Source: Mayamaea pseudoterrestris
Lineage: Eukaryota
Direction of reading: 5' to 3'
Assembly (NCBI GenBank): GCA_027923505.1
Contig: BROI01000006.1
Location: 1,116,001-1,180,000 of the forward strand
Length of the DNA: 64,000 nt
Part shown: positions 43,419-63,710 of the stretch, in pieces
Layout: each line of letters begins with the position of its first letter
Position numbering within the stretch: position 1 is the stretch's first letter
Position numbers and translations under genes: made by a program
Notes under the pieces: generated by a model
What the model saw: only the letters and a program-made list of their open reading frames with translations
What the model was told of the DNA's origin: nothing
Database searches by the model: none

Positions 43419-44963
43419 CACCAATCTCAGCCCGCAGATGCCATGACATTCAAACGCCCCTACAGCAGGCCCTGTAGGTGCCCAAATTACACCAGAATGG
43501 TGCCAACATCATTTTTCAGGCTGCGCTACAAGATACTATGCCTGGCTGGTGTCTCAGGGGATGGCAATGTATTTGGTGACAACTTGTCACCAGTCTCAGC
43601 CTGCAGATGCCATGACATTCAAACGCCCCTACAGCAGGCCCTGTAGGTGTCCAAATTACACCAGAATGGTGCCAACATCATTTTTGAGGCTGCGCTACAT
43701 GATGGTAAGACTGGCTGATGTCTCAGGGGATGGCAATGTATTTGGTGACAACTTGTCACCAGTCTCAGCCTGCAGATGCCGTGACATTCAAATGTCCCTA
43801 ACACAAGCCCTGTAGGTGCCCAAATGACACCTGAATGGTGCCAATATCATTATTTAGGCTGCGCTACAAGATGATATGCCTGGCTGGTGTCTCAGGGGAT
43901 GGCAATGTATTTGGTGACAACTTGTCACCAATCTCAGCCCGCAGATGCCATGACATTCAAACGCCCCTACAGCAGGCCCTGTAGGTGCCCAAATTACACC
44001 AGAATGGTGCCAACATTAATTTTGAGGCTGCACTACAAGATGGTAAGATTGGCTAGCGTCTTAGGTGATGGCAATGTTTTTGGTGACAACTTGTCACCAG
44101 TCTCAGCCCGCAGCAGCCGTGACATTCAAACGCTCCTAACGCAAGCCCTGTAGGTGCCCAATTTACACCAGAATGGTGCCAACATCATTATTCAGTATGC
44201 GCTAAAAGACGATATGCCTGGCTGGTGTCTCAGGGGATGGCAATGTATTTGGTGACAACTTGTCACCAATCTCAGCCCGCAGATGCCATGACATTCAAAC
44301 GCCCCTACAGCAGGCCCTGTAGGTTTCCAATTTACACCAGAATGGTGCCAACATCATTTTTCAGTCTGCGCTACAAGACGATATGCCTGGCTGGTGTCTC
44401 AGGGGATGGCAATGTATTTGATGACAACTTGTCACCAATCTCAGCCTGCAGATGCCATGACATTCAAATGCCCCTACAGCAGGCCCTGTGGGTGCCCAAA
44501 TTACACCAGAATGGTGCCAACATCTTTTTTCAGGCTGCGCTACAAGATGATATGCCTGGCTGGTGTCTCAGGAGATGTCAATGTATTTGGTGACAACTTG
44601 TCACCAGTCTCAGCCCCGCAGATGCCATGACATTCAAATGCCCCTACAGCAGGCCCTGCAGGTGCCCAAATTACACCAGAATGGTGCCAATATCATTATA
44701 TAGGCTGCGCAACAAGATGGTAGGCGTGGATGGCGTCTTGAGGGATGGCAATGTATTTGGTGACAACTTGTCACCAATTACAGCCCGCAGATGCCATGAC
44801 ATTCAAACACCCCTAACGCAAGCCCTGTAGGTGCCCAAATTACACTAGAATGGTGCCAACATCATTTTGCAGTCTGCGCTACAATCTGGTAAGATTGGCT
44901 GGTGTCTCAGGGGATGGCAATGTGTTTGGTGACAACTTGTCACCAGTCTCAGCCTGCAGATGC
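43419..44963. repeat. 169-bp tandem satellite, ~9 units, each with the palindrome tggtgacaa-c-ttgtcacca
   Basis: Recurring ORF starts 169 or 338 bp apart (43549, 43887, 44225, 44394); the array stops at the copia LTR at 44965. Confidence 0.95.
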
Positions 44964-45293
44964 TTGTAACTTGTAAATCAAATCGTTGCACCTTTCGCTT
45001 GTAGCTGTCCTTGGATGGCCAATCCAAGCTTGCAGTTGCTACAATACGAGAGACGAATAAATCGCTTTCTTAACTCTTCAAGCTTAGTAAGTCTGCTTGT
45101 TTCTACTCTATATCGCACTAGTTTCAGCAATATACTCGTTGAATCGCTTCGAAGCCGTCGCTGCCACGCATCACGCGATCGTGAGGCTGTGGTGAGCCGC
45201 GAGTGCCGCTGTGTCACCCTATCGGACATTCGGTGTGACTTGCCCGATTTTCGCTGTTTTCGTTCGCATCCTGCAACTCCCCTCAAGTCATAC

Positions 45294-48200
45294 CTAATAG
45301 TTAGATTCCTTGAAGAGCAGGTTCTTTAAGTGCTTGCTTGCCGTAGCCCGTGGAAGAAACTTGGTAAGTACATCCGCCGGGTTTGTCGTTCCCATGATGT
45401 GGTTGAAATTAATAATTCCCGCCGCAATCGCTTCGCGTACACGGTGAAATGCCAGTGCATTGTGTCGCTTCGTCAGACTAGAGTGCGGTAGGTTGCTGCT
45501 TTGCGTTACCGACTTGTTGTCTCCAAACATCCATGAAGGTCCGTCGAGCGGAACTCCCAACATGCGTAGCGTGAAGCGAAGATCCATGATCTGCTCCGTG
45601 CTCACTCTCGCTGCTACAAACTCCGAGCCGTACGTCGCCGTCTCGACCGTCGCTTGGCGTTTCGAAAACCAATCAACGACTGTTCCATTCAACATGTGTA
45701 GCATGCCCATCGCTGCCCGTCCCGTCGTGTAATCGTGGTACAGGTTCGCATCTTCGAACGTTGACATTCGCACCGCCTTGCCGCGCGGCGTGGGCATGTT
45801 CCACGGAAGCTCTTCGCAGATCTTGCCGTACACACTGTAATCCCAATCCATCTTGTCAACTGTCGCGTATCGCTCGTCCGTTGGAATCGAAACGTTGAAT
45901 CGAATCGCTCCATCCGGGTATCTTCGTAAGTATCCGCAAATATGCTTCAACCGTTCCAAGTGCCCCGCTCGTGGCGCAGCTCGGAATCTCCCCATAGTCA
46001 TGACAGCACAGTGAATGTCGAATCGACATAAACTTACTGCCCATTGCAACGCACCAATTATCGATTGATACTTCGCAATTCCGTCGTCGTCAAGTTCTTT
46101 CGTTTCGTCGAGTTCCGGATGATCGCCGTCGCGTAGTGGACTTGTCTGCGGTCGCGGTTCCTCGCCGAACATTTCTTTGTAGTTCGCTAGTAGTCTTGTG
46201 ACGTACTTCTTCGCTCCGAAGCAGAGTACGCCGTCGTCGTCTCGCCAAACGTCTGCGCCCAAATGATATGCCAATGGACCGACGCCCTTCAACTTGTAGT
46301 TGTAGTTCTCAATTAAAAGATCCGTTAGTTCCTTCGGATTCTTCATCGCTATCGCTAAATCGTCGACATACACACAAACGTATTCGTAGTGCGTGCCTTT
46401 ATCGCGCATCCACACGTCCGGTTCTGCGATACACGGCATGAAGCCAATGTCGCGGAGCGTGTCTGCAAAGTGCTCGTGCCAGCGTGCGCCTGACGTGCGA
46501 AGACCGTATAATGCCTTCACGATCGTGAGCGTGTGACCCTCGAGCTCCCCGAACTCCGGACCTGCCACGATATAAACCTTCTCTTTCGTTTTCGCTTCCA
46601 AGTATGCGTTGCCGACGTCAGCTGCCCACAGTTCCAGACCGTTGAGTTCCGCTAACATCGCTACCATTCGTAGACTTCGCAATGACACAACGCCCGAGTA
46701 AACTGAATCCTTCGGCGGCTCTGTCATATGTCCTCCTGCAACGAGTCGTGCTTTCCGTCGCAAATCGTGCTTGACATCGAATATCATGTGCACGTTTATT
46801 CGTTTCCACGGCGCCGGCATAACCTTACCGACTCCTTGATCTGCGAACGTGTCGTAATCATTTATCTGATTTAATTCCGTTCGAATCGCATCCGTCCACA
46901 GCGTGTTGCCGTTGATCTCGTCGAGAGCTTTCGCATCTTTATAATTGCGCGGCAACCTTACGCCGAATTTGTAGCGTACGCCGTTTGCTTTCGATTTTCG
47001 TTTCGCCGCTGTTACCATCTGTCGAAACTTCTTTCGCTTCCGAGTGTAATGCTCCAGCTGCTTCCATCCTGGCTTGTCGAGTAAGCCGTGCTTGAGTCCA
47101 TACTCTGCGATCGTTATCGGATCGTCCTTCTTCATGATCGCGAGAGGCTCCCACGTCGTCGTTCCGTCAGTCCATTCGACGAGAACGTTACTTGAACTTC
47201 CTTTGTATGTCGGATCGTTCGGTTTCAAATTAAGCTCGTGTCCGATTACCTTCGTGAATACCCACTGAGTCGCCGGATCGTTTCGTATATCTTCGTCCAT
47301 CTGTCGTTCGATTAAATCCGACAGTTCGTTGTAACTTATTAAGTCTTTCGCTGGCTCCTCTCCCATTTGGATTAGGAAACCTTTCGTCGTTTCGAGTAGC
47401 TCGTTATCGCGTACTTCGATATATTCGCATACAGTCGCTCGCATTTTCTGACCGTTTTCGTGTTCCCTTACGAACGTGCGTCCGATGAGTTCGCTTGGAG
47501 AGAACAGAGGGCATTTATTCCCTGATTCTTGCTCAGCCCTTCTGAAGAACTTCGCTGGTACGTTGGCGTGGTTCGCCATCGGAATTGTTTCGTCGTCGTT
47601 TCCTTCGTAGTTGTCGTGACTACTTTCTGTCACATGCGTGCTATGGTAGCGTCCTGTCGCGAGATCTGGAGTTTCAAAATTTCGCTCGCTTGCGCGTGTA
47701 GCTTCTTCAGAAATCTCCCCTCCAGACTCAGGGAAGGAAGGCAACTCTCGTGGTAACAAGTAGCTGCGCGAGACCACGTTGGAGCGCGGAATCGCCTGAA
47801 GCGTGTCGTCCGTCAGAACGAGAAAAGTCATGTGCGGACCGCTATTCTCTGCGATGCCCACGAATCGGCCGTTGCCAGATCGTACCGCCGAGGGAAAGCT
47901 CCCCTGCGCCTCAAACGTGACCGGTTCCCACCACTTGAAATGTAACAAAGGCGAAATATCCGGCAGATTTCCGAACGCAACTTCCGTTGGCGTGCGCCAT
48001 CCCAGCGATTTCGTCGCGAGGACGTTCAGTATCATGATTACGAATTTAATCAGCAAAACCCAGCAATGGCCTGGCGAACCCGAATCTCGTTGGAGGTTCT
48101 CCATCATTGGCTTAATGTGCGACGTGTGACGTTCGCATGGATTTTGTTCTGGATGACCCGGTTCTGTGGTCACTTGAGGAATATTGTACATCCGACAGAG

Positions 48201-50122
48201 ATCCCTCACAGCCTTGCCAGTCTCCGACTTGGCATTGTCGCTGAGCAGTCCGTTAGGAGCGCCCACTTCGCGGATAAAATCCTCTAACGCGTTTGACATT
48301 TCGCTCTCCGACTTCATCGGGTAGCCGCGCGTGTAAAAACTTTCTCGTCCAACAAAGAGCTGCATCTTAGTAGCTCCCCCATGCCCTAGAATTCCATCAT
48401 CCAAAGCTGGCGTGTCAGAGTGTATCGTGTCCGTGGCGAATAGTTCGCGCAACCGCTGAACGTTCGCGGCCGGAAATCGTGATTTCGTGAGGTGTCGAAA
48501 TGGTAATCGCGGGTGTGCGCTGAGATGATACCATGCTTCCGTGTGACGTAAAGTCTGTTGAACGCGCTCAGTCGGGACCCATCCGAGGTACGGCCGAAGA
48601 GCATTATAGTCCGGTTCCTTGCTTCTTAGCTTCCGCAAATTAACGCGTGAAAACTGAGCGTGTCGCACGCACCGATTGATCAGTACGTCAAGTTCGTCGC
48701 CAGTGCGTGTCGGCGTGTGACGATTGCGGTGCGTGATACCGTCATCATCGAATCGTTCGTCGAAAGATCCATAATCATGATCTCGTTCGTCGAAATCGTC
48801 GTGCGCGTGCTCGACATCGTAAACAGTCGAGTCCCACGGCACGTCCGACGTCATGATGACAGTCGGATACTTATCCAAATCATCGAACGTGGGTTTCGTC
48901 ACGTCCAAGTACACCAGGCCATCGCGAATTGCCAATGGCAAAACGTAGCCTCCAATGTTCGTCGTAATTCGTTGCGTTCCGCCAAACATGGTCGGAATAT
49001 CGTCGACGCGATGTCCCATTGCGCGCAATTGATTCGGGCAATGAATCGTCGGTCCGTCTCGCTTTAAAGCATACTGGTGACACAGAAGCAGAATGGTTTC
49101 GCCACTAAGGGTCTTTGCCAGTCCAGCTGCAGTGCCAATCTTGAGAGCTGGGACAATATGATCGTCAATACCAGTCACATCCACCTCGGCGTTCGTTTCC
49201 GAAACGACGAGCATGTCTCCTCCGCATAAGCCTCCGTTCGCGCCGCTGTCGATGAGCGCGCCTTCGTTGATCCGCTCGTAGTGTGCGCGATTGACGCGCA
49301 TACGACGATGCATGTTGAAGCTGAATGTACCTCGTCCGGTGTTATCAGTCGTCAACGATCCTGTCACTTGCTGAGTTGTAGTACTCGCATTGTTCGCTTG
49401 CAGAACCGATCGTGCAGCCGTTTGGACTGACATTCCACTATTGCCGGGCTGAATATTAATCGTGCCAGGAACGCTTGCGTGATCGTTCGCTACAGATTCC
49501 GTCGCGTGACGCTCTTGATGCGCCGCGTTGACTTGCGTCTGCGTCGTAGCCGTGCCTCGTTGGTTGCGCGGTCGCCATCCGTTTTCGGGTGTCTTGGGCG
49601 CCGTCGCACGCTTGTCCTTCAACTGCTTTCGCTGATCAAACTTCATCTCCAACCAGACTTCATCCTTCACGCTCGCGTGAGGTTTCTTCATGATCGCTGC
49701 AAATCGTTCCGCCGATAAGCCGCTTGGAGTCGCGCCGCCATTGCCGCCGCCGCCTCCTTTCGTTCCACTAGACTGCGCTTGATTGATTGTGCGCTTAGTC
49801 TTCGTCGTCGATGGGTGTTTCTTGTCATACTTGATGCAGCACTCTTCTAAGTGCGCGTACAACTGCGCGAAATTGTCTTCCGAGTCGTGTTGCCCCATGT
49901 GTTTCTTGATGGCAATCATTCCGTCAAAACCTGCTAGTGATGCGCTGAATCCTGTGTGCTCGGAGAAAGCGTCGCGTAGCATGTCGTATCGTTGTAAACC
50001 TGTCAGAGCTTCTGCGTCCATTTCGAGCAGCCAGATGACTTTCTTGTAGAACAGTGCGAGAAATTCGATCGTCGGCCGTGACCACTTCTCGGTCAGCCGC
50101 ATTCCCTGCAGTTCCGTTCGCG
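45294..50122 (-). CDS. pol: Copia polyprotein copy 1 (C-terminal gag, protease, integrase, chromo-like segment, RT, RNase H), out of frame with the gag N-terminus
   Basis: ALIDSGANG, SDNAKSE...NPCE, ADVGNAYL, KALYGL, YVDDL, TYGSEF and NPADVLTK motifs. Confidence 0.92.
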
Positions 50123-51084
50123 CGTTCCTTCTCGATGTGAGCAGTAGCGCCTTCTTCGTATCGCGTTCGCAATCGTTGGTAGACTTCGCGTCCGTCCATC
50201 GTCTTCTTGAACTGCTGTACTGCGAGTGATGCAGACGGAGTTCGACAGTGCGTGAGAAAGATCCTGTATACAAACACATTCTTCTTTGCATACGCCTTCT
50301 GTTCTTTCGGTCCCTTTTCCTTCGGGTCATAATCGTCGTCAAAGACTTCGTGGAAGTCATGCAATGTAGCGATGACTTTCAACTCGGAAATCCACTGTTT
50401 CCACGAGGAATCCAGCTTCATTTCTTTACAATCCCTCGCCGAGAACTTGATAGACTTCGTAAATTGGTCTGAATACTTCTCGTCGTCTTCGTCGTCGCCG
50501 AGGTCCAGTACGGATGTCGGTGACTGCTTCGTGTCCACGTCCACACTCGTCGGTGGCACCTTGTCGGCCGAGTCAGGCTTCGACTCGTTGCCTTCGTTCG
50601 TTAGCGTGGAGTCCTTGGATTCGTCCTTCTTGGATTCCGTTTCGCTTTCCTTCGCTGGAGGTTTCGCTCCGCTTCCGCTGCCCACGCTCGCAATGTTGCG
50701 CGCTTGGACTCGTTCCTTCGCTCGTGCTGTGACGAACGTCGCCAGCGTTTCGGTGGTCAGTTGCGACCATGTCTTGATGTCCGGCGACTCTTGCGCCAAA
50801 TACCATTCGATCGCGTTCGTGATCGTGCGTTGTTTCATCTTCGTTAGCGAGTGTTCGCTCGTTTCCTGCGTGACATTGTCGCCATCGTCAGTCGTCGTCG
50901 TTGTCGTCGTCGTGACGTTCCACTTCGTCGCGAAATCGTCGTACTCCATCTCGATCAGTTGCGTAAGCGATTCTACTCCGAGTTCGTCGAATAACTCCTT
51001 GAACTGAGGATCTTGGAAAACGCCTACGTTCTCTTCGTAAACATGCGCAAACGCCGCGTCTTTCTGCGCGCGAGTTTCCGCCAT
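49924..51084 (-). CDS. gag: Copia gag N-terminal part, copy 1 (frame breaks near 50120)
   Basis: ATG at 51084 (MAETRAQK); WKQWISELKVIATLHDFHEVFDDDY...DGREVYQRLRTRY is gag-like. Confidence 0.8.
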   Translation of the reverse strand: MAETRAQKDAAFAHVYEENVGVFQDPQFKELFDELGVESLTQLIEMEYDDFATKWNVTTTTTTTTDDGDNVTQETSEHSLTKMKQRTITNAIEWYLAQESPDIKTWSQLTTETLATFVTARAKERVQARNIASVGSGSGAKPPAKESETESKKDESKDSTLTNEGNESKPDSADKVPPTSVDVDTKQSPTSVLDLGDDEDDEKYSDQFTKSIKFSARDCKEMKLDSSWKQWISELKVIATLHDFHEVFDDDYDPKEKGPKEQKAYAKKNVFVYRIFLTHCRTPSASLAVQQFKKTMDGREVYQRLRTRYEEGATAHIEKERANGTAGNAADREVVTADDRISRTVLQESHLAARNGRRSSDRFTTIRHATRRFLRAHRIQRITSRF

Positions 51085-51876
51085 CGTTGTCGTCGTGACA
51101 ATGTTCTTGCTATCACCTGCGGAACTTTCCGGGCCAAGAACCAACGTGCGTCCACGTTACTTCGTAAATCAATAGTACTCTTCGTCGATAAAGTCTCTAT
51201 GCCGAGGCAATGAGTCTCAAGACAGTGTTAATCTTGTAACTTGTAAATCAAATCGTTGCACCTTTCGCTTGTAGCTGTCCTTGGATGGCCAATCCAAGCT
51301 TGCAGTTGCTACAATACGAGAGACGAATAAATCGCTTTCTTAACTCTTCAAGCTTAGTAAGTCTGCTTGTTTCTACTCTATATCGCACTAGTTTCAGCAA
51401 TATACTTGTTGAATCGCTTCGAAGCCGTCGCTGCCACGCATCACGCGATCGTGAGGCTGTGGTGAGCCGCGAGTGCCGCTGTGTCACCCTATCGGACATT
51501 CGGTGTGACTTGCCCGATTTTCGCTGTTTTCGTTCGCATCCTGCAATTGTAACTTGTAAATCAAATCGTTGCACCTTTCGCTTGTAGCTGTCCTTGGATG
51601 GCCAATCCAAGCTTGCAGTTGCTACAATACGAGAGACGAATAAATCGCTTTCTTAACTCTTCAAGCTTAGTAAGTCTGCTTGTTTCTACTCTATATCGCA
51701 CTAGTTTCAGCAATATACTCGTTGAATCGCTTCGAAGCCGTCGCTGCCACGCATCACGCGATCGTGAGGCTGTGGTGAGCCGCGAGTGCCGCTGTGTCAC
51801 CCTATCGGACATTCGGTGTGACTTGCCCGATTTTCGCTGTTTTCGTTCGCATCCTGCAACTCCCCTCAAGTCATAC

Positions 51877-54800
51877 CTAATAGTTAGATTCCTTGAAGAG
51901 CAGGTTCTTTAAGTGCTTGCTTGCCGTAGCCCGTGGAAGAAACTTGGTAAGTACATCCGCCGGGTTTGTCGTTCCCATGATGTGGTTGAAATTAATAATT
52001 CCCGCCGCAATCGCTTCGCGTACACGGTGAAATGCCAGTGCATTGTGTCGCTTCGTCAGACTAGAGTGCGGTAGGTTGCTGCTTTGCGTTACCGACTTGT
52101 TGTCTCCAAACATCCATGAAGGTCCGTCGAGCGGAACTCCCAACATGCGTAGCGTGAAGCGAAGATCCATGATCTGCTCCGTGCTCACTCTCGCTGCTAC
52201 AAACTCCGAGCCGTACGTCGCCGTCTCGACCGTCGCTTGGCGTTTCGAAAACCAATCAACGACTGTTCCATTCAACATGTGTAGCATGCCCATCGCTGCC
52301 CGTCCCGTCGTGTAATCGTGGTACAGGTTCGCATCTTCGAACGTTGACATTCGCACCGCCTTGCCGCGCGGCGTGGGCATGTTCCACGGAAGCTCTTCGC
52401 AGATCTTGCCGTACACACTGTAATCCCAATCCATCTTGTCAACTGTCGCGTATCGCTCGTCCGTTGGAATCGAAACGTTGAATCGAATCGCTCCATCCGG
52501 GTATCTTCGTAAGTATCCGCAAATATGCTTCAACCGTTCCAAGTGCCCCGCTCGTGGCGCAGCTCGGAATCTCCCCATAGTCATGACAGCACAGTGAATG
52601 TCGAATCGACATAAACTTACTGCCCATTGCAACGCACCAATTATCGATTGATACTTCGCAATTCCGTCGTCGTCAAGTTCTTTCGTTTCGTCGAGTTCCG
52701 GATGATCGCCGTCGCGTAGTGGACTTGTCTGCGGTCGCGGTTCCTCGCCGAACATTTCTTTGTAGTTCGCTAGTAGTCTTGTGACGTACTTCTTCGCTCC
52801 GAAGCAGAGTACGCCGTCGTCGTCTCGCCAAACGTCTGCGCCCAAATGATATGCCAATGGACCGACGCCCTTCAACTTGTAGTTGTAGTTCTCAATTAAA
52901 AGATCCGTTAGTTCCTTCGGATTCTTCATCGCTATCGCTAAATCGTCGACATACACACAAACGTATTCGTAGTGCGTGCCTTTATCGCGCATCCACACGT
53001 CCGGTTCTGCGATACACGGCATGAAGCCAATGTCGCGGAGCGTGTCTGCAAAGTGCTCGTGCCAGCGTGCGCCTGACGTGCGAAGACCGTATAATGCCTT
53101 CACGATCGTGAGCGTGTGACCCTCGAGCTCCCCGAACTCCGGACCTGCCACGATATAAACCTTCTCTTTCGTTTTCGCTTCCAAGTATGCGTTGCCGACG
53201 TCAGCTGCCCACAGTTCCAGACCGTTGAGTTCCGCTAACATCGCTACCATTCGTAGACTTCGCAATGACACAACGCCCGAGTAAACTGAATCCTTCGGCG
53301 GCTCTGTCATATGTCCTCCTGCAACGAGTCGTGCTTTCCGTCGCAAATCGTGCTTGACATCGAATATCATGTGCACGTTTATTCGTTTCCACGGCGCCGG
53401 CATAACCTTACCGACTCCTTGATCTGCGAACGTGTCGTAATCATTTATCTGATTTAATTCCGTTCGAATCGCATCCGTCCACAGCGTGTTGCCGTTGATC
53501 TCGTCGAGAGCTTTCGCATCTTTATAATTGCGCGGCAACCTTACGCCGAATTTGTAGCGTACGCCGTTTGCTTTCGATTTTCGTTTCGCCGCTGTTACCA
53601 TCTGTCGAAACTTCTTTCGCTTCCGAGTGTAATGCTCCAGCTGCTTCCATCCTGGCTTGTCGAGTAAGCCGTGCTTGAGTCCATACTCTGCGATCGTTAT
53701 CGGATCGTCCTTCTTCATGATCGCGAGAGGCTCCCACGTCGTCGTTCCGTCAGTCCATTCGACGAGAACGTTACTTGAACTTCCTTTGTATGTCGGATCG
53801 TTCGGTTTCAAATTAAGCTCGTGTCCGATTACCTTCGTGAATACCCACTGAGTCGCCGGATCGTTTCGTATATCTTCGTCCATCTGTCGTTCGATTAAAT
53901 CCGACAGTTCGTTGTAACTTATTAAGTCTTTCGCTGGCTCCTCTCCCATTTGGATTAGGAAACCTTTCGTCGTTTCGAGTAGCTCGTTATCGCGTACTTC
54001 GATATATTCGCATACAGTCGCTCGCATTTTCTGACCGTTTTCGTGTTCCCTTACGAACGTGCGTCCGATGAGTTCGCTTGGAGAGAACAGAGGGCATTTA
54101 TTCCCTGATTCTTGCTCAGCCCTTCTGAAGAACTTCGCTGGTACGTTGGCGTGGTTCGCCATCGGAATTGTTTCGTCGTCGTTTCCTTCGTAGTTGTCGT
54201 GACTACTTTCTGTCACATGCGTGCTATGGTAGCGTCCTGTCGCGAGATCTGGAGTTTCAAAATTTCGCTCGCTTGCGCGTGTAGCTTCTTCAGAAATCTC
54301 CCCTCCAGACTCAGGGAAGGAAGGCAACTCTCGTGGTAACAAGTAGCTGCGCGAGACCACGTTGGAGCGCGGAATCGCCTGAAGCGTGTCGTCCGTCAGA
54401 ACGAGAAAAGTCATGTGCGGACCGCTATTCTCTGCGATGCCCACGAATCGGCCGTTGCCAGATCGTACCGCCGAGGGAAAGCTCCCCTGCGCCTCAAACG
54501 TGACCGGTTCCCACCACTTGAAATGTAACAAAGGCGAAATATCCGGCAGATTTCCGAACGCAACTTCCGTTGGCGTGCGCCATCCCAGCGATTTCGTCGC
54601 GAGGACGTTCAGTATCATGATTACGAATTTAATCAGCAAAACCCAGCAATGGCCTGGCGAACCCGAATCTCGTTGGAGGTTCTCCATCATTGGCTTAATG
54701 TGCGACGTGTGACGTTCGCATGGATTTTGTTCTGGATGACCCGGTTCTGTGGTCACTTGAGGAATATTGTACATCCGACAGAGATCCCTCACAGCCTTGC

Positions 54801-56705
54801 CAGTCTCCGACTTGGCATTGTCGCTGAGCAGTCCGTTAGGAGCGCCCACTTCGCGGATAAAATCCTCTAACGCGTTTGACATTTCGCTCTCCGACTTCAT
54901 CGGGTAGCCGCGCGTGTAAAAACTTTCTCGTCCAACAAAGAGCTGCATCTTAGTAGCTCCCCCATGCCCTAGAATTCCATCATCCAAAGCTGGCGTGTCA
55001 GAGTGTATCGTGTCCGTGGCGAATAGTTCGCGCAACCGCTGAACGTTCGCGGCCGGAAATCGTGATTTCGTGAGGTGTCGAAATGGTAATCGCGGGTGTG
55101 CGCTGAGATGATACCATGCTTCCGTGTGACGTAAAGTCTGTTGAACGCGCTCAGTCGGGACCCATCCGAGGTACGGCCGAAGAGCATTATAGTCCGGTTC
55201 CTTGCTTCTTAGCTTCCGCAAATTAACGCGTGAAAACTGAGCGTGTCGCACGCACCGATTGATCAGTACGTCAAGTTCGTCGCCAGTGCGTGTCGGCGTG
55301 TGACGATTGCGGTGCGTGATACCGTCATCATCGAATCGTTCGTCGAAAGATCCATAATCATGATCTCGTTCGTCGAAATCGTCGTGCGCGTGCTCGACAT
55401 CGTAAACAGTCGAGTCCCACGGCACGTCCGACGTCATGATGACAGTCGGATACTTATCCAAATCATCGAACGTGGGTTTCGTCACGTCCAAGTACACCAG
55501 GCCATCGCGAATTGCCAATGGCAAAACGTAGCCTCCAATGTTCGTCGTAATTCGTTGCGTTCCGCCAAACATGGTCGGAATATCGTCGACGCGATGTCCC
55601 ATTGCGCGCAATTGATTCGGGCAATGAATCGTCGGTCCGTCTCGCTTTAAAGCATACTGGTGACACAGAAGCAGAATGGTTTCGCCACTAAGGGTCTTTG
55701 CCAGTCCAGCTGCAGTGCCAATCTTGAGAGCTGGGACAATATGATCGTCAATACCAGTCACATCCACCTCGGCGTTCGTTTCCGAAACGACGAGCATGTC
55801 TCCTCCGCATAAGCCTCCGTTCGCGCCGCTGTCGATGAGCGCGCCTTCGTTGATCCGCTCGTAGTGTGCGCGATTGACGCGCATACGACGATGCATGTTG
55901 AAGCTGAATGTACCTCGTCCGGTGTTATCAGTCGTCAACGATCCTGTCACTTGCTGAGTTGTAGTACTCGCATTGTTCGCTTGCAGAACCGATCGTGCAG
56001 CCGTTTGGACTGACATTCCACTATTGCCGGGCTGAATATTAATCGTGCCAGGAACGCTTGCGTGATCGTTCGCTACAGATTCCGTCGCGTGACGCTCTTG
56101 ATGCGCCGCGTTGACTTGCGTCTGCGTCGTAGCCGTGCCTCGTTGGTTGCGCGGTCGCCATCCGTTTTCGGGTGTCTTGGGCGCCGTCGCACGCTTGTCC
56201 TTCAACTGCTTTCGCTGATCAAACTTCATCTCCAACCAGACTTCATCCTTCACGCTCGCGTGAGGTTTCTTCATGATCGCTGCAAATCGTTCCGCCGATA
56301 AGCCGCTTGGAGTCGCGCCGCCATTGCCGCCGCCGCCTCCTTTCGTTCCACTAGACTGCGCTTGATTGATTGTGCGCTTAGTCTTCGTCGTCGATGGGTG
56401 TTTCTTGTCATACTTGATGCAGCACTCTTCTAAGTGCGCGTACAACTGCGCGAAATTGTCTTCCGAGTCGTGTTGCCCCATGTGTTTCTTGATGGCAATC
56501 ATTCCGTCAAAACCTGCTAGTGATGCGCTGAATCCTGTGTGCTCGGAGAAAGCGTCGCGTAGCATGTCGTATCGTTGTAAACCTGTCAGAGCTTCTGCGT
56601 CCATTTCGAGCAGCCAGATGACTTTCTTGTAGAACAGTGCGAGAAATTCGATCGTCGGCCGTGACCACTTCTCGGTCAGCCGCATTCCCTGCAGTTCCGT
56701 TCGCG
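51877..56705 (-). CDS. pol: Copia polyprotein copy 2
   Basis: Translation identical to copy 1. Confidence 0.9.
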
Positions 56706-57667
56706 CGTTCCTTCTCGATGTGAGCAGTAGCGCCTTCTTCGTATCGCGTTCGCAATCGTTGGTAGACTTCGCGTCCGTCCATCGTCTTCTTGAACTGCTG
56801 TACTGCGAGTGATGCAGACGGAGTTCGACAGTGCGTGAGAAAGATCCTGTATACAAACACATTCTTCTTTGCATACGCCTTCTGTTCTTTCGGTCCCTTT
56901 TCCTTCGGGTCATAATCGTCGTCAAAGACTTCGTGGAAGTCATGCAATGTAGCGATGACTTTCAACTCGGAAATCCACTGTTTCCACGAGGAATCCAGCT
57001 TCATTTCTTTACAATCCCTCGCCGAGAACTTGATAGACTTCGTAAATTGGTCTGAATACTTCTCGTCGTCTTCGTCGTCGCCGAGGTCCAGTACGGATGT
57101 CGGTGACTGCTTCGTGTCCACGTCCACACTCGTCGGTGGCACCTTGTCGGCCGAGTCAGGCTTCGACTCGTTGCCTTCGTTCGTTAGCGTGGAGTCCTTG
57201 GATTCGTCCTTCTTGGATTCCGTTTCGCTTTCCTTCGCTGGAGGTTTCGCTCCGCTTCCGCTGCCCACGCTCGCAATGTTGCGCGCTTGGACTCGTTCCT
57301 TCGCTCGTGCTGTGACGAACGTCGCCAGCGTTTCGGTGGTCAGTTGCGACCATGTCTTGATGTCCGGCGACTCTTGCGCCAAATACCATTCGATCGCGTT
57401 CGTGATCGTGCGTTGTTTCATCTTCGTTAGCGAGTGTTCGCTCGTTTCCTGCGTGACATTGTCGCCATCGTCAGTCGTCGTCGTTGTCGTCGTCGTGACG
57501 TTCCACTTCGTCGCGAAATCGTCGTACTCCATCTCGATCAGTTGCGTAAGCGATTCTACTCCGAGTTCGTCGAATAACTCCTTGAACTGAGGATCTTGGA
57601 AAACGCCTACGTTCTCTTCGTAAACATGCGCAAACGCCGCGTCTTTCTGCGCGCGAGTTTCCGCCAT
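56507..57667 (-). CDS. gag: Copia gag N-terminal part, copy 2
   Basis: Translation identical to copy 1, with the same frame break. Confidence 0.8.
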   Translation of the reverse strand: MAETRAQKDAAFAHVYEENVGVFQDPQFKELFDELGVESLTQLIEMEYDDFATKWNVTTTTTTTTDDGDNVTQETSEHSLTKMKQRTITNAIEWYLAQESPDIKTWSQLTTETLATFVTARAKERVQARNIASVGSGSGAKPPAKESETESKKDESKDSTLTNEGNESKPDSADKVPPTSVDVDTKQSPTSVLDLGDDEDDEKYSDQFTKSIKFSARDCKEMKLDSSWKQWISELKVIATLHDFHEVFDDDYDPKEKGPKEQKAYAKKNVFVYRIFLTHCRTPSASLAVQQFKKTMDGREVYQRLRTRYEEGATAHIEKERANGTAGNAADREVVTADDRISRTVLQESHLAARNGRRSSDRFTTIRHATRRFLRAHRIQRITSRF

Positions 57668-58397
57668 CGTTGTCGTCGTGACAATGTTCTTGCTATCACC
57701 TGCGGAACTTTCCGGGCCAAGAACCAACGTGCGTCCACGTTACTTCGTAAATCAATAGTACTCTTCGTCGATAAAGTCTCTATGCCGAGGCAATGAGTCT
57801 CAAGACAGTGTTAATCTTGTAACTTGTAAATCAAATCGTTGCACCTTTCGCTTGTAGCTGTCCTTGGATGGCCAATCCAAGCTTGCAGTTGCTACAATAC
57901 GAGAGACGAATAAATCGCTTTCTTAACTCTTCAAGCTTAGTAAGTCTGCTTGTTTCTACTCTATATCGCACTAGTTTCAGCAATATACTTGTTGAATCGC
58001 TTCGAAGCCGTCGCTGCCACGCATCACGCGATCGTGAGGCTGTGGTGAGCCGCGAGTGCCGCTGTGTCACCCTATCGGACATTCGGTGTGACTTGCCCGA
58101 TTTTCGCTGTTTTCGTTCGCATCCTGCAAAACTTATGGCCCATCATTGACGGCAATCATGATTTGAATGAAATTGGAGTGCTCAGCGGGCAATGCTGATG
58201 ATCCCTGCAGCCAAAACGGGAGCAGGGATGGCACATTCAACCATTGGTTGAATGTGCGCAGTCTCAGGGCATGGTGATGGCTTCCACGTCCAAATGGACA
58301 AGTCTATGAGTCCCAATCAATGTTCAAGTCCATATTGATGGTACTATGGGGTCTGCAGGCCATTTTGGAAGTCTCACTTGCCACCTGAGGTGCACCA

Positions 58398-60645: not shown

Positions 60646-61754
60646 CTAATTGGACGCAAATGAAACCTTGGCTGTGATTTCCTGCGCCAAGGCCTCGTTG
60701 TAGCTCGATCTAAACTCTGTGGCAGCACTAGGATCCGTGGTGTTGGGTCTGGCAAACTCAATCTTGAGAATCAAGTGGTCAAAGCCTGAAGAGCGCGCAA
60801 GTGGTGAAATAAGTTGAAAGAGCAGTATAGAGAATACAAGTTAGAACAAGTGAAAAGGTATGCATGAGTACAGCATACATACATATATAAATACATACCA
60901 TGTCCTTGCAAACCCTCCATAGCTCGCTCCGCATCCTCCTTGTTGACAAATGACACGAAGGCAAACCCTCTACTTTCCATAGTTTTCTTATCCTTGAGTA
61001 AGTAGACGCGCAAAATGGGTCCGTATCGCGCAAACAGGTCCTTAATGTCCGACTCGGTGGTGCTCGTCGACAAATTGGTGACCCGCAACGTGTTCAAGTC
61101 ATCCGTCCGGCGAAAGCCGCCAGTGTCGGGATTGACAACTCCAGCCTGCTGCGCGGGCGTCATGTACTCGCCGGGGCCAGCAGAGCCTGCTGCACCTGGC
61201 GTGGAACCTCCGCCGCTGGCCAATGAATTTTCAACCTGCGTCCAACCCTCGTTGCTGCCTCCTCCTTCCGCTCCAGGAGTACCGCCAACGTCATACTTGC
61301 GCTCCAACTGCCGGCGCTTCTGCTTGGCCCAAAAGGCATTCAAGTTTCTGGCTATGGCGGCGTCCGCATCCTGCTCCTGCAAATCCGTGTTGGCGCGCGG
61401 ATCCTCCAGTAGAGTTTCCTCCTTGCTTTGCACTGTGGTTTGGTTCTTTTCCTTTGTGTCAGTCGCCGCTTGACCGAACTCCCTCCACTGCCCACGCTCC
61501 TGCATACGCTCGGCGTCCTTGGCGGTGACGGTATCCATGTTGCTCTTGGTGATGGTTTTGATCAATTGGCGCGAGTGCTTGTGGTGACGCTTGTAGGTGG
61601 TGGTGGTTTGAATCCCCTGGCTGTCGAACCAAGACTCGTTTGTGGGTGGCACAACAACTGGTTTATTGTCGTTACTGGAGGAGCCGCGCGTTTCATCATC
61701 GTCGTCAGAATCGTCCATGTTGTCGGCCCAGCGGGGATTATTAGTTGATACCAT
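60646..61754 (-). CDS. eIF3g: Eukaryotic translation initiation factor 3 subunit G; exons 61754-60899 and 60785-60646
   Basis: RWAD, ERGQWREFG, RRM (NTLRVTNLS...SRGFAFVSF...GLQGHG|FDHLILKIEFA) across a GT-AG intron. Confidence 0.88.
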
Positions 61755-62170
61755 GTTTCTTGCTGGCTTGCTTGTTTCGTTAAGAGAGAAACGCGAGCTT
61801 GAGAGAGAAACGAAAACGCCATGGCAGAGGCTCGCAACGAGAACGGCTCGCAAGAAAAACGAGGCTCGTGATGAATGCGTGATCGAAGCAGTCATTCCCA
61901 TATGACGTTTCAATGATCGTTGTGAGAACGACCAATGCATGCGAACATGCAAGCACGCTCACTTAACAAAATGACTGGATTGACATTATGCGATCTTGCT
62001 TGACTTATCTAAAAGTATCAGGCTTAACTAATTGACTGGATAGATTGAGTCAAGATTGAAATAGTGACTCCGCGCAAAATGGCAACAGCCTTCGAATGAG
62101 CGATTACAAAACCAAACTCGAGCAAGTCAGCACAAAGCATACAGATTGTTGCTCAAACAGAGCCATTACC

Positions 62171-62695
62171 ATGATTCAGCGGTTACCCAACCTTCTCCTC
62201 ATTGCACTTGTTGCATTCAGCAGCAGCAGTTTCGTTCCATCGGTTGCAGCTGCAGCGTCTACGGAACCAGACGTTTGGATGCTCACGCTGCTGGGCAAGA
62301 ATGATGAGGACGGCAACTGCAAAGCCCAAGCCGACGAGATTGGAACGTATGTGCAAGAAACATTCAACGCTGCCATTCCCGGAATCACTCCCTACGATCC
62401 AGTCGTTGATGATACAACAACCAATAGTAATCGCTTCCTGCGCAGCAGCAGTCGCCGCCAGCTGGCCATTAAGCTATGCGCCCGCACCTACTGCTCCAAG
62501 CCACGCAACTGGGACGAGTGCTACTTTTCCGGATGCTCCTGCAGCTGCGGACGAAGCAGGCAGCTGGCGGTCACTGCCAGCAGCGACATGGCCCAGGTAC
62601 TCAAGGCCAAGCGCGACTTGGACAAGTGGGTCACGGCCAAGGGAGTGGAACTTGGATGTGAGCTTGGACTGGTCATGGAGAAAATGAGGGGATAG
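62171..62695 (+). CDS. Secreted precursor with an RxL-flanked 6-Cys peptide, paralog 1
   Basis: Signal peptide MIQRLPNLLLIALVAFSSS; RFLR...RRQL-AIKLCARTYCSKPRNWDECYFSGCSCSCG-RSRQL; homologous to 63231-63710. Confidence 0.85.
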   Translation: MIQRLPNLLLIALVAFSSSSFVPSVAAAASTEPDVWMLTLLGKNDEDGNCKAQADEIGTYVQETFNAAIPGITPYDPVVDDTTTNSNRFLRSSSRRQLAIKLCARTYCSKPRNWDECYFSGCSCSCGRSRQLAVTASSDMAQVLKAKRDLDKWVTAKGVELGCELGLVMEKMRG

Positions 62696-63230
62696 CTACT
62701 GGAGATGAGGATATTGAGACTCGCGTTTAGTCGGTCTCGGGCGCTGTGTACTTTCATAGCTCGCGCGAAGCGTTCCTGCGATGCGACCGTTGCTGGACTT
62801 GCATCTTTGGAAAGACGTTCGTGGCCTCTTTCAAGCTCGAGTGACTGAAGCTTTAATAACGGCGTTTTGCCATTGATGATAGATTTACATTATATATAAA
62901 TGTCGTCTTTCATCTAGGTAGCGTCAACCAATCATCCTGACTGTCCATAGTTCCAGACAACTTGCTTCGCGTTGTGTAGCAATTTTGCATACTATTCCGT
63001 AGTGATCATCCATGCACTCATTCACTACTCGAGTACGTCTTTTGTGATGTACTTTACCTATGTACTTTCATAAAATAAAGAGTTAATATGACTGCGATAA
63101 TTCTATCAGCAAGCGGCTTTGTAGCCTTGTTAAGTCTACGTATGAATTGGAAATGCAAGCGGCAACGAGCGAAGGGATCGTCATGGCCGAGGAAAGAAGG
63201 AATAAAAGGTGTTGCATGCATTCTCGTCTC

Positions 63231-63710
63231 CTAGGTCACCTTTTTCAACACCAATCCAAGCTCACAGCCGAGCTCCACACCCTTGGTGACAAGCATGGCA
63301 TCGAGAATTCGCTTGGCTTCCAGAATTTGCGCCTGGTCGCTGGCATTTTCTGACACTAGCTCACGTCCTCGGCCGCACGTGCATGAGCAACCACTAAAGA
63401 TGCAAACATCCCAGTTGCGTGGCTTTGAGCAGTAGGTGCGGTCGCAAACGTTAATGGTGGTAAGCTCGCGGTGGACGCTGCGTAGAAAGCGGCCAGCATT
63501 GTCATCTGGATAGTAGGTGGTAAAGCCAGGGACGGCGGCGTTGAATACATCCTGGACTTGCTGACCTATCGCATCGGCTTGGGCGAGGCAAGCACCGTTT
63601 ACATCGTTTCGCCCGAGAACGTTGAGCGCCCAAAGGTTGGCCGGTTTGGCGGCAGAAACCGAATGAACGCAGGCAAATGCAGCAAGGAGGAGTGACAGGA
63701 TTTGGATCAT
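63231..63710 (-). CDS. Secreted precursor with an RxL-flanked 6-Cys peptide, paralog 2
   Basis: Signal peptide MIQILSLLLAAFACVHSVSA; RFLR...REL-TTINVCDRTYCSKPRNWDVCIFSGCSCTCG-RGREL. Confidence 0.85.
   Translation of the reverse strand: MIQILSLLLAAFACVHSVSAAKPANLWALNVLGRNDVNGACLAQADAIGQQVQDVFNAAVPGFTTYYPDDNAGRFLRSVHRELTTINVCDRTYCSKPRNWDVCIFSGCSCTCGRGRELVSENASDQAQILEAKRILDAMLVTKGVELGCELGLVLKKVT

Follow-up and report, generated by a model that had tools for sequence, protein, structure and literature searches.

Two convergent genes of Mayamaea pseudoterrestris encode putative secreted precursors of an RxL-bracketed six-cysteine peptide

What is made from two small convergent genes of the diatom Mayamaea pseudoterrestris, each of which encodes a secreted-type precursor with a six-cysteine core between two RxL motifs? 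The genes lie near the end of a stretch of 64,000 nucleotides, here called the window (positions 1,116,001 to 1,180,000 of contig BROI01000006.1, assembly GCA_027923505.1; this contig is C6 below, and coordinates without a contig name are those of the window). An initial annotation, made from the letters alone, had proposed that the core is excised as a three-disulfide peptide from a disulfide-clamped carrier. Our computational analysis led us to favor the reading that RxL cleavage releases a cationic three-disulfide peptide of 3.2-3.3 kDa which would act outside the cell as a diffusible ligand. We assign this reading a probability of roughly 0.45. Taken by itself, excision of the core from its precursor, with the cleavage and secretion that we infer for it, is probable.

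The description of two convergent secreted-type genes with a common layout, cores, RxL sites and shared motifs proved accurate in every position. The features are as follows; confidence of the AlphaFold models is given as the predicted local distance difference test score (pLDDT).

62171..62695, forward strand: gene A, a prepropeptide of 174 residues, without intron; its exact sequence is present in the protein collection
62171..62257, forward strand: predicted signal peptide of gene A, approximately residues 1-29 (hydrophobicity 3.37; putative cleavage site)
62273..62374, forward strand: N-terminal half of the predicted carrier of gene A, strand 35-43 and helix 54-68 (AlphaFold pLDDT 62-84)
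62318-62320, forward strand: Cys50 of gene A in the N-terminal carrier half (a co-varying flank cysteine)
62432..62464, forward strand: upstream double site RFLR...RQL of gene A, residues 88-98
62465..62551, forward strand: six-cysteine core of gene A, residues 99-127, the predicted mature peptide
62552..62566, forward strand: downstream site RSRQL of gene A, residues 128-132
62567..62692, forward strand: C-terminal half of the predicted carrier of gene A, helix 137-161 and strand 164-172 (pLDDT 84-92 over 141-170)
62657-62659, forward strand: Cys163 of gene A in the C-terminal carrier half
63231..63710, reverse strand: gene B, a prepropeptide of 159 residues, without intron, of the same layout as A
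63588-63590 and 63264-63266, reverse strand: flank cysteines of gene B, Cys41 and Cys149
63462..63491, reverse strand: upstream double site RFLR...REL of gene B, residues 74-83
63372..63461, reverse strand: six-cysteine core of gene B, residues 84-113
63357..63371, reverse strand: downstream site RGREL of gene B, residues 114-118

The convergent genes A and B are 53% identical. Both cores follow the spacing C-x4-C-x8-C-x4-C-x-C-x-C-G, and the two proteins have in common RFLR, both R(Q/E)L sites, RTYCSKPRNWD, FSGCSC and KGVELGCELGLV. Each flank contains a single cysteine (50 and 163 in A, 41 and 149 in B), and B has an extra one within its signal peptide. The best 9-residue Kyte-Doolittle values at the N termini were 3.37 for A and 2.92 for B; signal peptides of the whole family were judged from hydrophobicity alone. 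An in-frame ATG is found upstream of gene A at 62096, and the form in the protein collection is the one of 174 residues starting at 62171. With three disulfides, the computed monoisotopic masses of the predicted core peptides are 3244.31 Da (A) and 3325.35 Da (B); for genes C and D, introduced below, the expected masses are 3187.23 and 3299.33 Da. The strict cysteine pattern occurred twice in the six frames of the window and in none of 200 base-shuffled windows, ruling out chance as the origin of the motif. Among 78 frames of at least 150 residues from the window and seven fetched loci, the RxL-Cys...Cys-RxL cassette was found only in A and B, in a survey that intron-split paralogues were unable to match.

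The two genes had been annotated as a pair. As convergent relatives they stand, but they are really half of a four-gene cluster, two members of which lie past the window end. A search of the genome gave eight matches, namely A, B, C and D and, on contig C2, their four syntenic counterparts. Divergent queries led to four further loci, two near-identical copies on contig C15 and two genes on contig C13, so that the family comprises at least 12 loci on four contigs. In the C15 and C13 genes an intron is located inside the core. One C13 gene is sequence P0022 of the family set described below; the other carries the family module, with a four-cysteine core, at the end of a long frame whose N-terminal region has no Pfam match and contains a WDHWEDGYE motif.

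C6:1180545-1181042: gene C, 165 residues, just past the window end
C6:1181791-1182294: gene D, 167 residues, just past the window end
C13:623338-625300, reverse strand: long intron-containing paralogue with a signal-like start, adjoining P0022

Searches for relatives yielded 6 sequences with a single-sequence query, 19 with a profile run over 1.84 billion representatives, 6 with a wider profile and 24 with a core profile. The analyzed set comprised 28 sequences, 6 from the M. pseudoterrestris genome and 22 from elsewhere. P0024 (dropped as an unrelated repeat with PA28_C and other Pfam matches), the N-terminal fragments P0016, P0017 and P0019, the C2 copies, the long C13 gene and the near-duplicates P0020, P0027, P0028, P0037 and P0038 were left out. 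M. pseudoterrestris, placed in Bacillariophyceae by NCBI, was the sole species name among the family matches; the other 22 sequences presumably also come from diatoms. P0004 (A-like) and P0030 (A/B clade) are both located on one contig of 5782 bases, a hint of another gene pair elsewhere. The tree placed A and B in a weakly supported group of 13 (87/95) and C and D in a supported group of 7 (98/96). The six rows from the M. pseudoterrestris genome need five changes, suggesting that the family had split into paralogues before the species arose.

The RxL sites and the cysteine spacing singled out in the initial annotation proved to be conserved in the homologues. In 27 of the 28 sequences the first core cysteine is preceded, at a distance of 1-5 residues, by the end of an RxL, and a downstream RxL follows the last core cysteine within 9 residues, also in 27 of 28 (with loose matches in P0018 and P0021), against a flank background of 11 RxL in 2511 residues. 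All six core cysteines are kept in 26/28; the other two sequences, like the long C13 paralogue, have four. The exact spacing of the window genes recurs in 17/28 and C3-x4-C4 in 28/28. Most members carry a second upstream site of the RxLR type, which P0022 lacks, and the peptide from RxL to RxL is 27-31 residues long in 25/28. A hydrophobic N-terminal stretch is present in A, B and 26/28 rows, P0031 and P0034 being truncated at the N terminus. The net charge is positive for the core in 26/28 and negative for the N-terminal flank in 24/28. Over the 21 rows obtained with full-length queries, non-cysteine identity between pairs was 36% in the core versus 23% in the folded flanks, and core identity exceeded flank identity in 180 of 210 pairs, which are not independent of each other. 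Between paralogues C and D, 83% of the residues agree in the core and 34% in the flanks. P0023 is exceptional in its length of 400 residues, and its C-terminal flank carries a long insertion that is charged and helical; its source name, FtsK/SpoIIIE-like ATPase, was not borne out by the sequence.

The earlier statement that no named family was recognized also agreed with the outcome of our searches in Pfam, PDB and ESM Atlas. No Pfam family scored above cut-off for A, B, 21 of the 22 scanned matches or 17 cores. Searching PDB by sequence gave no match for the full profile and six chance-level matches for the core (E 0.5 to 2.5). ESM Atlas returned one low lead for the whole protein (VP7, 0.76) and none for the core, and scans of metagenome contigs gave 534 and 132 pattern matches, none of which was confirmed as a relative. 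No description of the six-cysteine RxL family was found in the literature searched, in which few subscription papers were covered; preprint 10.1101/2024.04.15.589526 likewise contained nothing relevant to it. The family is real, and it is undescribed in that literature.

The models indicated how the segments on either side of the core might be organized. The full-length AlphaFold model, built from 11 sequences, had a mean pLDDT of 58.8. Confidence was low at 73-107 and 121-135, and the confident parts (strand 35-43, helix 54-68, helix 137-161 and strand 164-172) lay in the flanks, which at 62-92 exceeded linker and core. Structural matches of this model were ferredoxin-like and included ribosomal S6 and other ribosomal proteins; the best, 4r86_B, reached Z 7.5 with a root mean square deviation (rmsd) of 3.7 over 103 aligned residues, a Z range that possibly reflects just a common arrangement. 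No SEA domain was among these matches. The core alone, modeled from 23 sequences, was predicted with pLDDT 70 as two short helices and had no match with Z ≥2 (VIA), which excludes nothing at 39 residues. Foldseek gave no match at E ≤0.001 for either model.

The cysteines of the flanks change together. They are found at positions equivalent to 50 and 163 in 20/20 close members. In P0025, P0029 and P0036 both have moved to 68 and 146; these three form one clade, so the shift counts as one event. Both are absent from P0021, near-equivalent pairs occur in P0022 and P0026, and P0018 and P0023 show other patterns. Pairs that join the start of helix 1 to the end of helix 2, or the end of helix 1 to the start of helix 2, are what antiparallel helices would lead one to expect. 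This co-variation favors a clamp made by a disulfide, with the peptide inserted as a loop, and together with alpha/beta flanks modeled around a low-confidence core it speaks for the disulfide-clamped carrier of the original proposal. The new elements here are the predicted alpha/beta arrangement, with flanks that the models place more confidently than the core, and the co-variation of the flank cysteines. Within the core, the last two cysteines are lost together in P0026, P0034 (possibly a sequence error) and the long C13 gene, suggesting that they probably pair.

Motifs of this kind have precedents. Mature silaffins lack the C-terminal RRIL/RRNL of the Sil1p precursor, and RXL was proposed as a general endopeptidase motif (PMC4557024); the protease itself was described as unknown (PMC5525289). 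RXL was also noted in SiMat7-like proteins (PMC5501833), and oomycete RXLR motifs are reported to be cleaved (PMC12441027). A diatom peptide pheromone exists, and a 2025 review called pheromone biosynthesis and receptors open (PMC12352721). According to the mechanism that we propose, the chain would enter the endoplasmic reticulum, where the N- and C-terminal flanks would fold into a strand-helix/helix-strand carrier held by one disulfide, with the core as a loop. A diatom RxL-processing protease would then cut after the upstream RxL and remove the downstream basic RxL linker, as in the silaffin-1 precursor. The product would be a peptide of 29-30 residues, usually cationic, helix-containing, with three disulfides and a free C terminus. 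The clamped two-chain carrier left behind may serve folding, sorting or keeping the peptide latent. Outside the cell the peptide would bind a specific partner; signaling between cells would be its likeliest role, antagonism toward other microbes a less likely one.

The free C terminus departs from the initial annotation, which had taken Gly followed by Arg as a possible signal for amidation. This part of the proposal was rejected. The only PF01082 match in the genome (a lower bound), at C5:339436-342570, is a DBH-like protein with DOMON and copper type II monooxygenase domains and a hydrophobic C terminus rather than PAM-type; the survey covered PF01082 only, with no separate PAL search. Stramenopiles lack PAM according to the review PMC6529398. 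Moreover, Gly directly precedes Arg or Lys in 18 of the 26 six-cysteine members and is missing there in 8/26. C-terminal amidation of the core peptide is therefore unlikely.

Several points weigh against a released ligand. Peptide, cleavage product and activity are all deduced from genes. The RxL sites and the core were both part of the profiles by which the homologues were gathered, which biased the conservation figures for both upward. The comparison of C6 with C2, which is free of this bias, counted 1 replacement and 6 silent changes in the core versus 17 and 42 elsewhere; the direction was the same, yet the difference was not significant (p = 0.66). In P0012 an acidic spacer separates RxL and core, and the second of the upstream RxL sites is missing from the long C13 paralogue. 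The full-length model contains two short strands in the core, and its ferredoxin-like match spans residues 27-174, so that the core could belong to one domain with the flanks. The core is strongly conserved among paralogues and sources, in contrast to species-specific pheromones like the ones described for Euplotes (PMC9542385). Finally, RXL sites have so far been described only in biosilica-associated proteins, with their processing role unproven (PMC5647440).

This last point leads to the alternative that RxL processing yields a structural or regulatory component of the silica wall, the organic coat or the adhesive trail. The RXL proteins named in the cited papers (silaffins, silacidins, cingulins, frustulins, Sin1, SiMat7-like proteins and SAPs) are all biosilica-associated, the core is cationic, RNA-like contigs of one study cover genes A, C and D, and in one paralogue a long secreted-type protein ends in the module. 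However, the four cluster genes encode no Lys/Ser-rich repeats, KxxK tracts or transmembrane helix, the best 19-residue hydrophobicity of their products being just 0.63-1.64. Membership among silaffins, silacidins or cingulins was rejected because the four proteins also lack acidic repeat tracts. A single peptide per precursor with conserved aromatics would suit specific binding better than a bulk material, and we consider a role in wall, coat or trail unlikely.

It is likewise improbable that the core is never freed. SEA/Notch-like modules are primed by cleavage without falling apart, and insulin is active after loss of the C-peptide; by analogy, the core might stay bound to its carrier after the cuts, or the two-chain carrier might itself be the product. 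Conservation extends to the flanks (23-36% identity), which are modeled with confidence, the best structural matches are ferredoxin-like with Z up to 7.5, an S6-like/SEA-like fold was predicted for the secreted mating-type protein MRP1 (preprint 10.64898/2026.03.25.714164), and the opposite charges of core and N-terminal flank would favor continued binding. Against this, the core is the most conserved part and two basic sites are kept on either side of it at a nearly fixed distance; Z values below 8 may be no sign of kinship, and the matches include no SEA domain.

Cysteine-rich segments of SET-domain methyltransferases bind zinc, and cysteines in the secretory pathway are normally oxidized. 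That the six cysteines bind zinc or copper rather than pair in disulfides, so that the core would be secreted to carry or buffer metal, is the least credible alternative: the CxC and CxxC ends, the CPxC or CPxxC start of several members and the top Foldseek rows of the core model (SET-domain methyltransferases, yet with E 7 to 10) are outweighed by the expected oxidation, the even cysteine numbers of the cores, the lack of conserved His or acidic ligands, the absence of the word cysteine from the main text of the species' copper-response paper and the absence of the four family gene numbers from two supplements of that paper (which are not its full list of 426 changed genes).

Four runs of one study contain the stretch, none of them recorded as RNA. 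A contig of run X3 joins the exons of the eIF3g gene of the C2 copy across its intron, as spliced, which means that X3 behaves as RNA, and run X4 showed the same gene-limited cover. Genes A, C and D were covered by contigs of X3 and X4, which shows that they are present but says nothing of level or condition; gene B was almost uncovered in these runs, which is no evidence either way. The cluster is flanked by eIF3g on one side and by a gene without Pfam match on the other.

60771..61757, reverse strand: eIF3 subunit G, a neighbor outside the family, with an intron near its 3' end (Pfam eIF3g and RRM_1); the left coordinate 60771 is the end of the unspliced frame

In this frame the Pfam model was covered from 7 to 90 of 130, with a slightly short N-terminal part. 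The two eIF3g copies (the other at L011 2936-3895) diverge more than the neighboring peptide genes B and C, and the copy in the window, with little cover in X3 and X4, may be a minor one.

The cluster regions of C6 and C2 are 90.8% identical over 5.4 kb, and the strain heterogeneity of M. pseudoterrestris is given as 2.97% (PMC9724779). If this value applies, the two regions more likely reflect an old duplication or homeology than allelic haplotigs. NCBI lists the C2 copies of A and B (the latter as MPSEU_000124100) and gene D as M. pseudoterrestris hypothetical proteins. On C15, a segment of at least 7.4 kb is duplicated at ~650-657 kb and 671-678 kb with 96.7% identity, ~21 kb apart, and each duplicate carries one divergent P0025-type family gene. 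A further candidate on C3 (L052, E 2.15) was rejected because the family profile gave no match. The upstream regions of B, C and D have an 8-mer in common, from which, having no control set, we drew no meaning. Elsewhere in the window, at 44963-58129, two tandem copia-type retrotransposons are 100% identical over 6583 bases; they have terminal repeats of ~314 bases and gag and pol frames that overlap out of frame. The frames of the same element appear broken on C2, and the tandem copies may stem from a very recent tandem insertion or may have been duplicated in the assembly. A tandem array with a unit of ~169 bases and copies ~89% alike (~43419-44963) adjoins them.

If the excision is true, RXL processing would be extended beyond silica proteins. 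The family provides exact peptide masses, a small product that can be synthesized and a compact two-site substrate for finding the RXL protease, and the putative disulfide, in having moved between the two ends of the carrier, offers natural evidence on carrier structure. Diatoms use peptides as sex signals whose biosynthesis and receptors are open questions (PMC12352721). It is doubtful, though conceivable, that these genes represent the first family of ribosomally made diatom peptide signals, in which differing carriers release near-identical peptides from a clamped SEA-like module, a design that might include MRP1 and be general for diatom pheromones and hormones.

Among known systems, the diatom RXL precursors (Sil1p, silacidins, cingulins, frustulins, Silicanin-1, SiMat7-like proteins and SAPs) likewise combine a signal peptide, an acidic pro-region and an RXL-bracketed unit. 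The precursors described here differ in that they hold one non-repetitive six-cysteine peptide, have neither Lys/Ser or acidic repeats nor a membrane anchor, and possess a folded C-terminal flank tied to the N-terminal one. Plant RALF also arises from a preproprotein with an acidic pro-region, in which RRXL is cut by site-1 protease and a small cysteine-bonded peptide results (PMC5258720). RALF is C-terminal, with four cysteines and YISY, whereas here the core is internal, has six cysteines and would need two cuts; lacking YISY and a RALF Pfam match as well, the family was rejected as a RALF member. Pheromones of the Er-1 type from Euplotes, a protist, are small helical six-cysteine peptides with intrachain disulfides made from pre-pro precursors, with a variable mature part and conserved pre-pro regions (PMC9542385). 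Here this order is reversed, the core being more conserved than the flanks, and the core is modeled (pLDDT 70) with two helices instead of three; no structural match was listed for it, at a length where this excludes nothing. MRP1 of Pseudo-nitzschia multistriata is likewise a diatom protein with a signal peptide; it is a proposed secreted sexual signal (PMC6261938) with a predicted S6-like/SEA-like alpha/beta fold (preprint 10.64898/2026.03.25.714164); five helices and four strands, positive selection and a Bacillariaceae-type range are reported for it. No Pseudo-nitzschia or Fragilariopsis name appeared among the family search matches. In PawS1, where SFTI-1 lies within a 2S albumin precursor, in proinsulin and in yeast killer-toxin precursors, an internal segment is excised and the flanks stay disulfide-linked. 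These share no sequence or fold match with the present family, in which it is the putatively excised part that is conserved and, as predicted, disulfide-rich. In its logic, the six-cysteine core family would resemble RXL-processed precursors, RALF and ciliate pheromone precursors.
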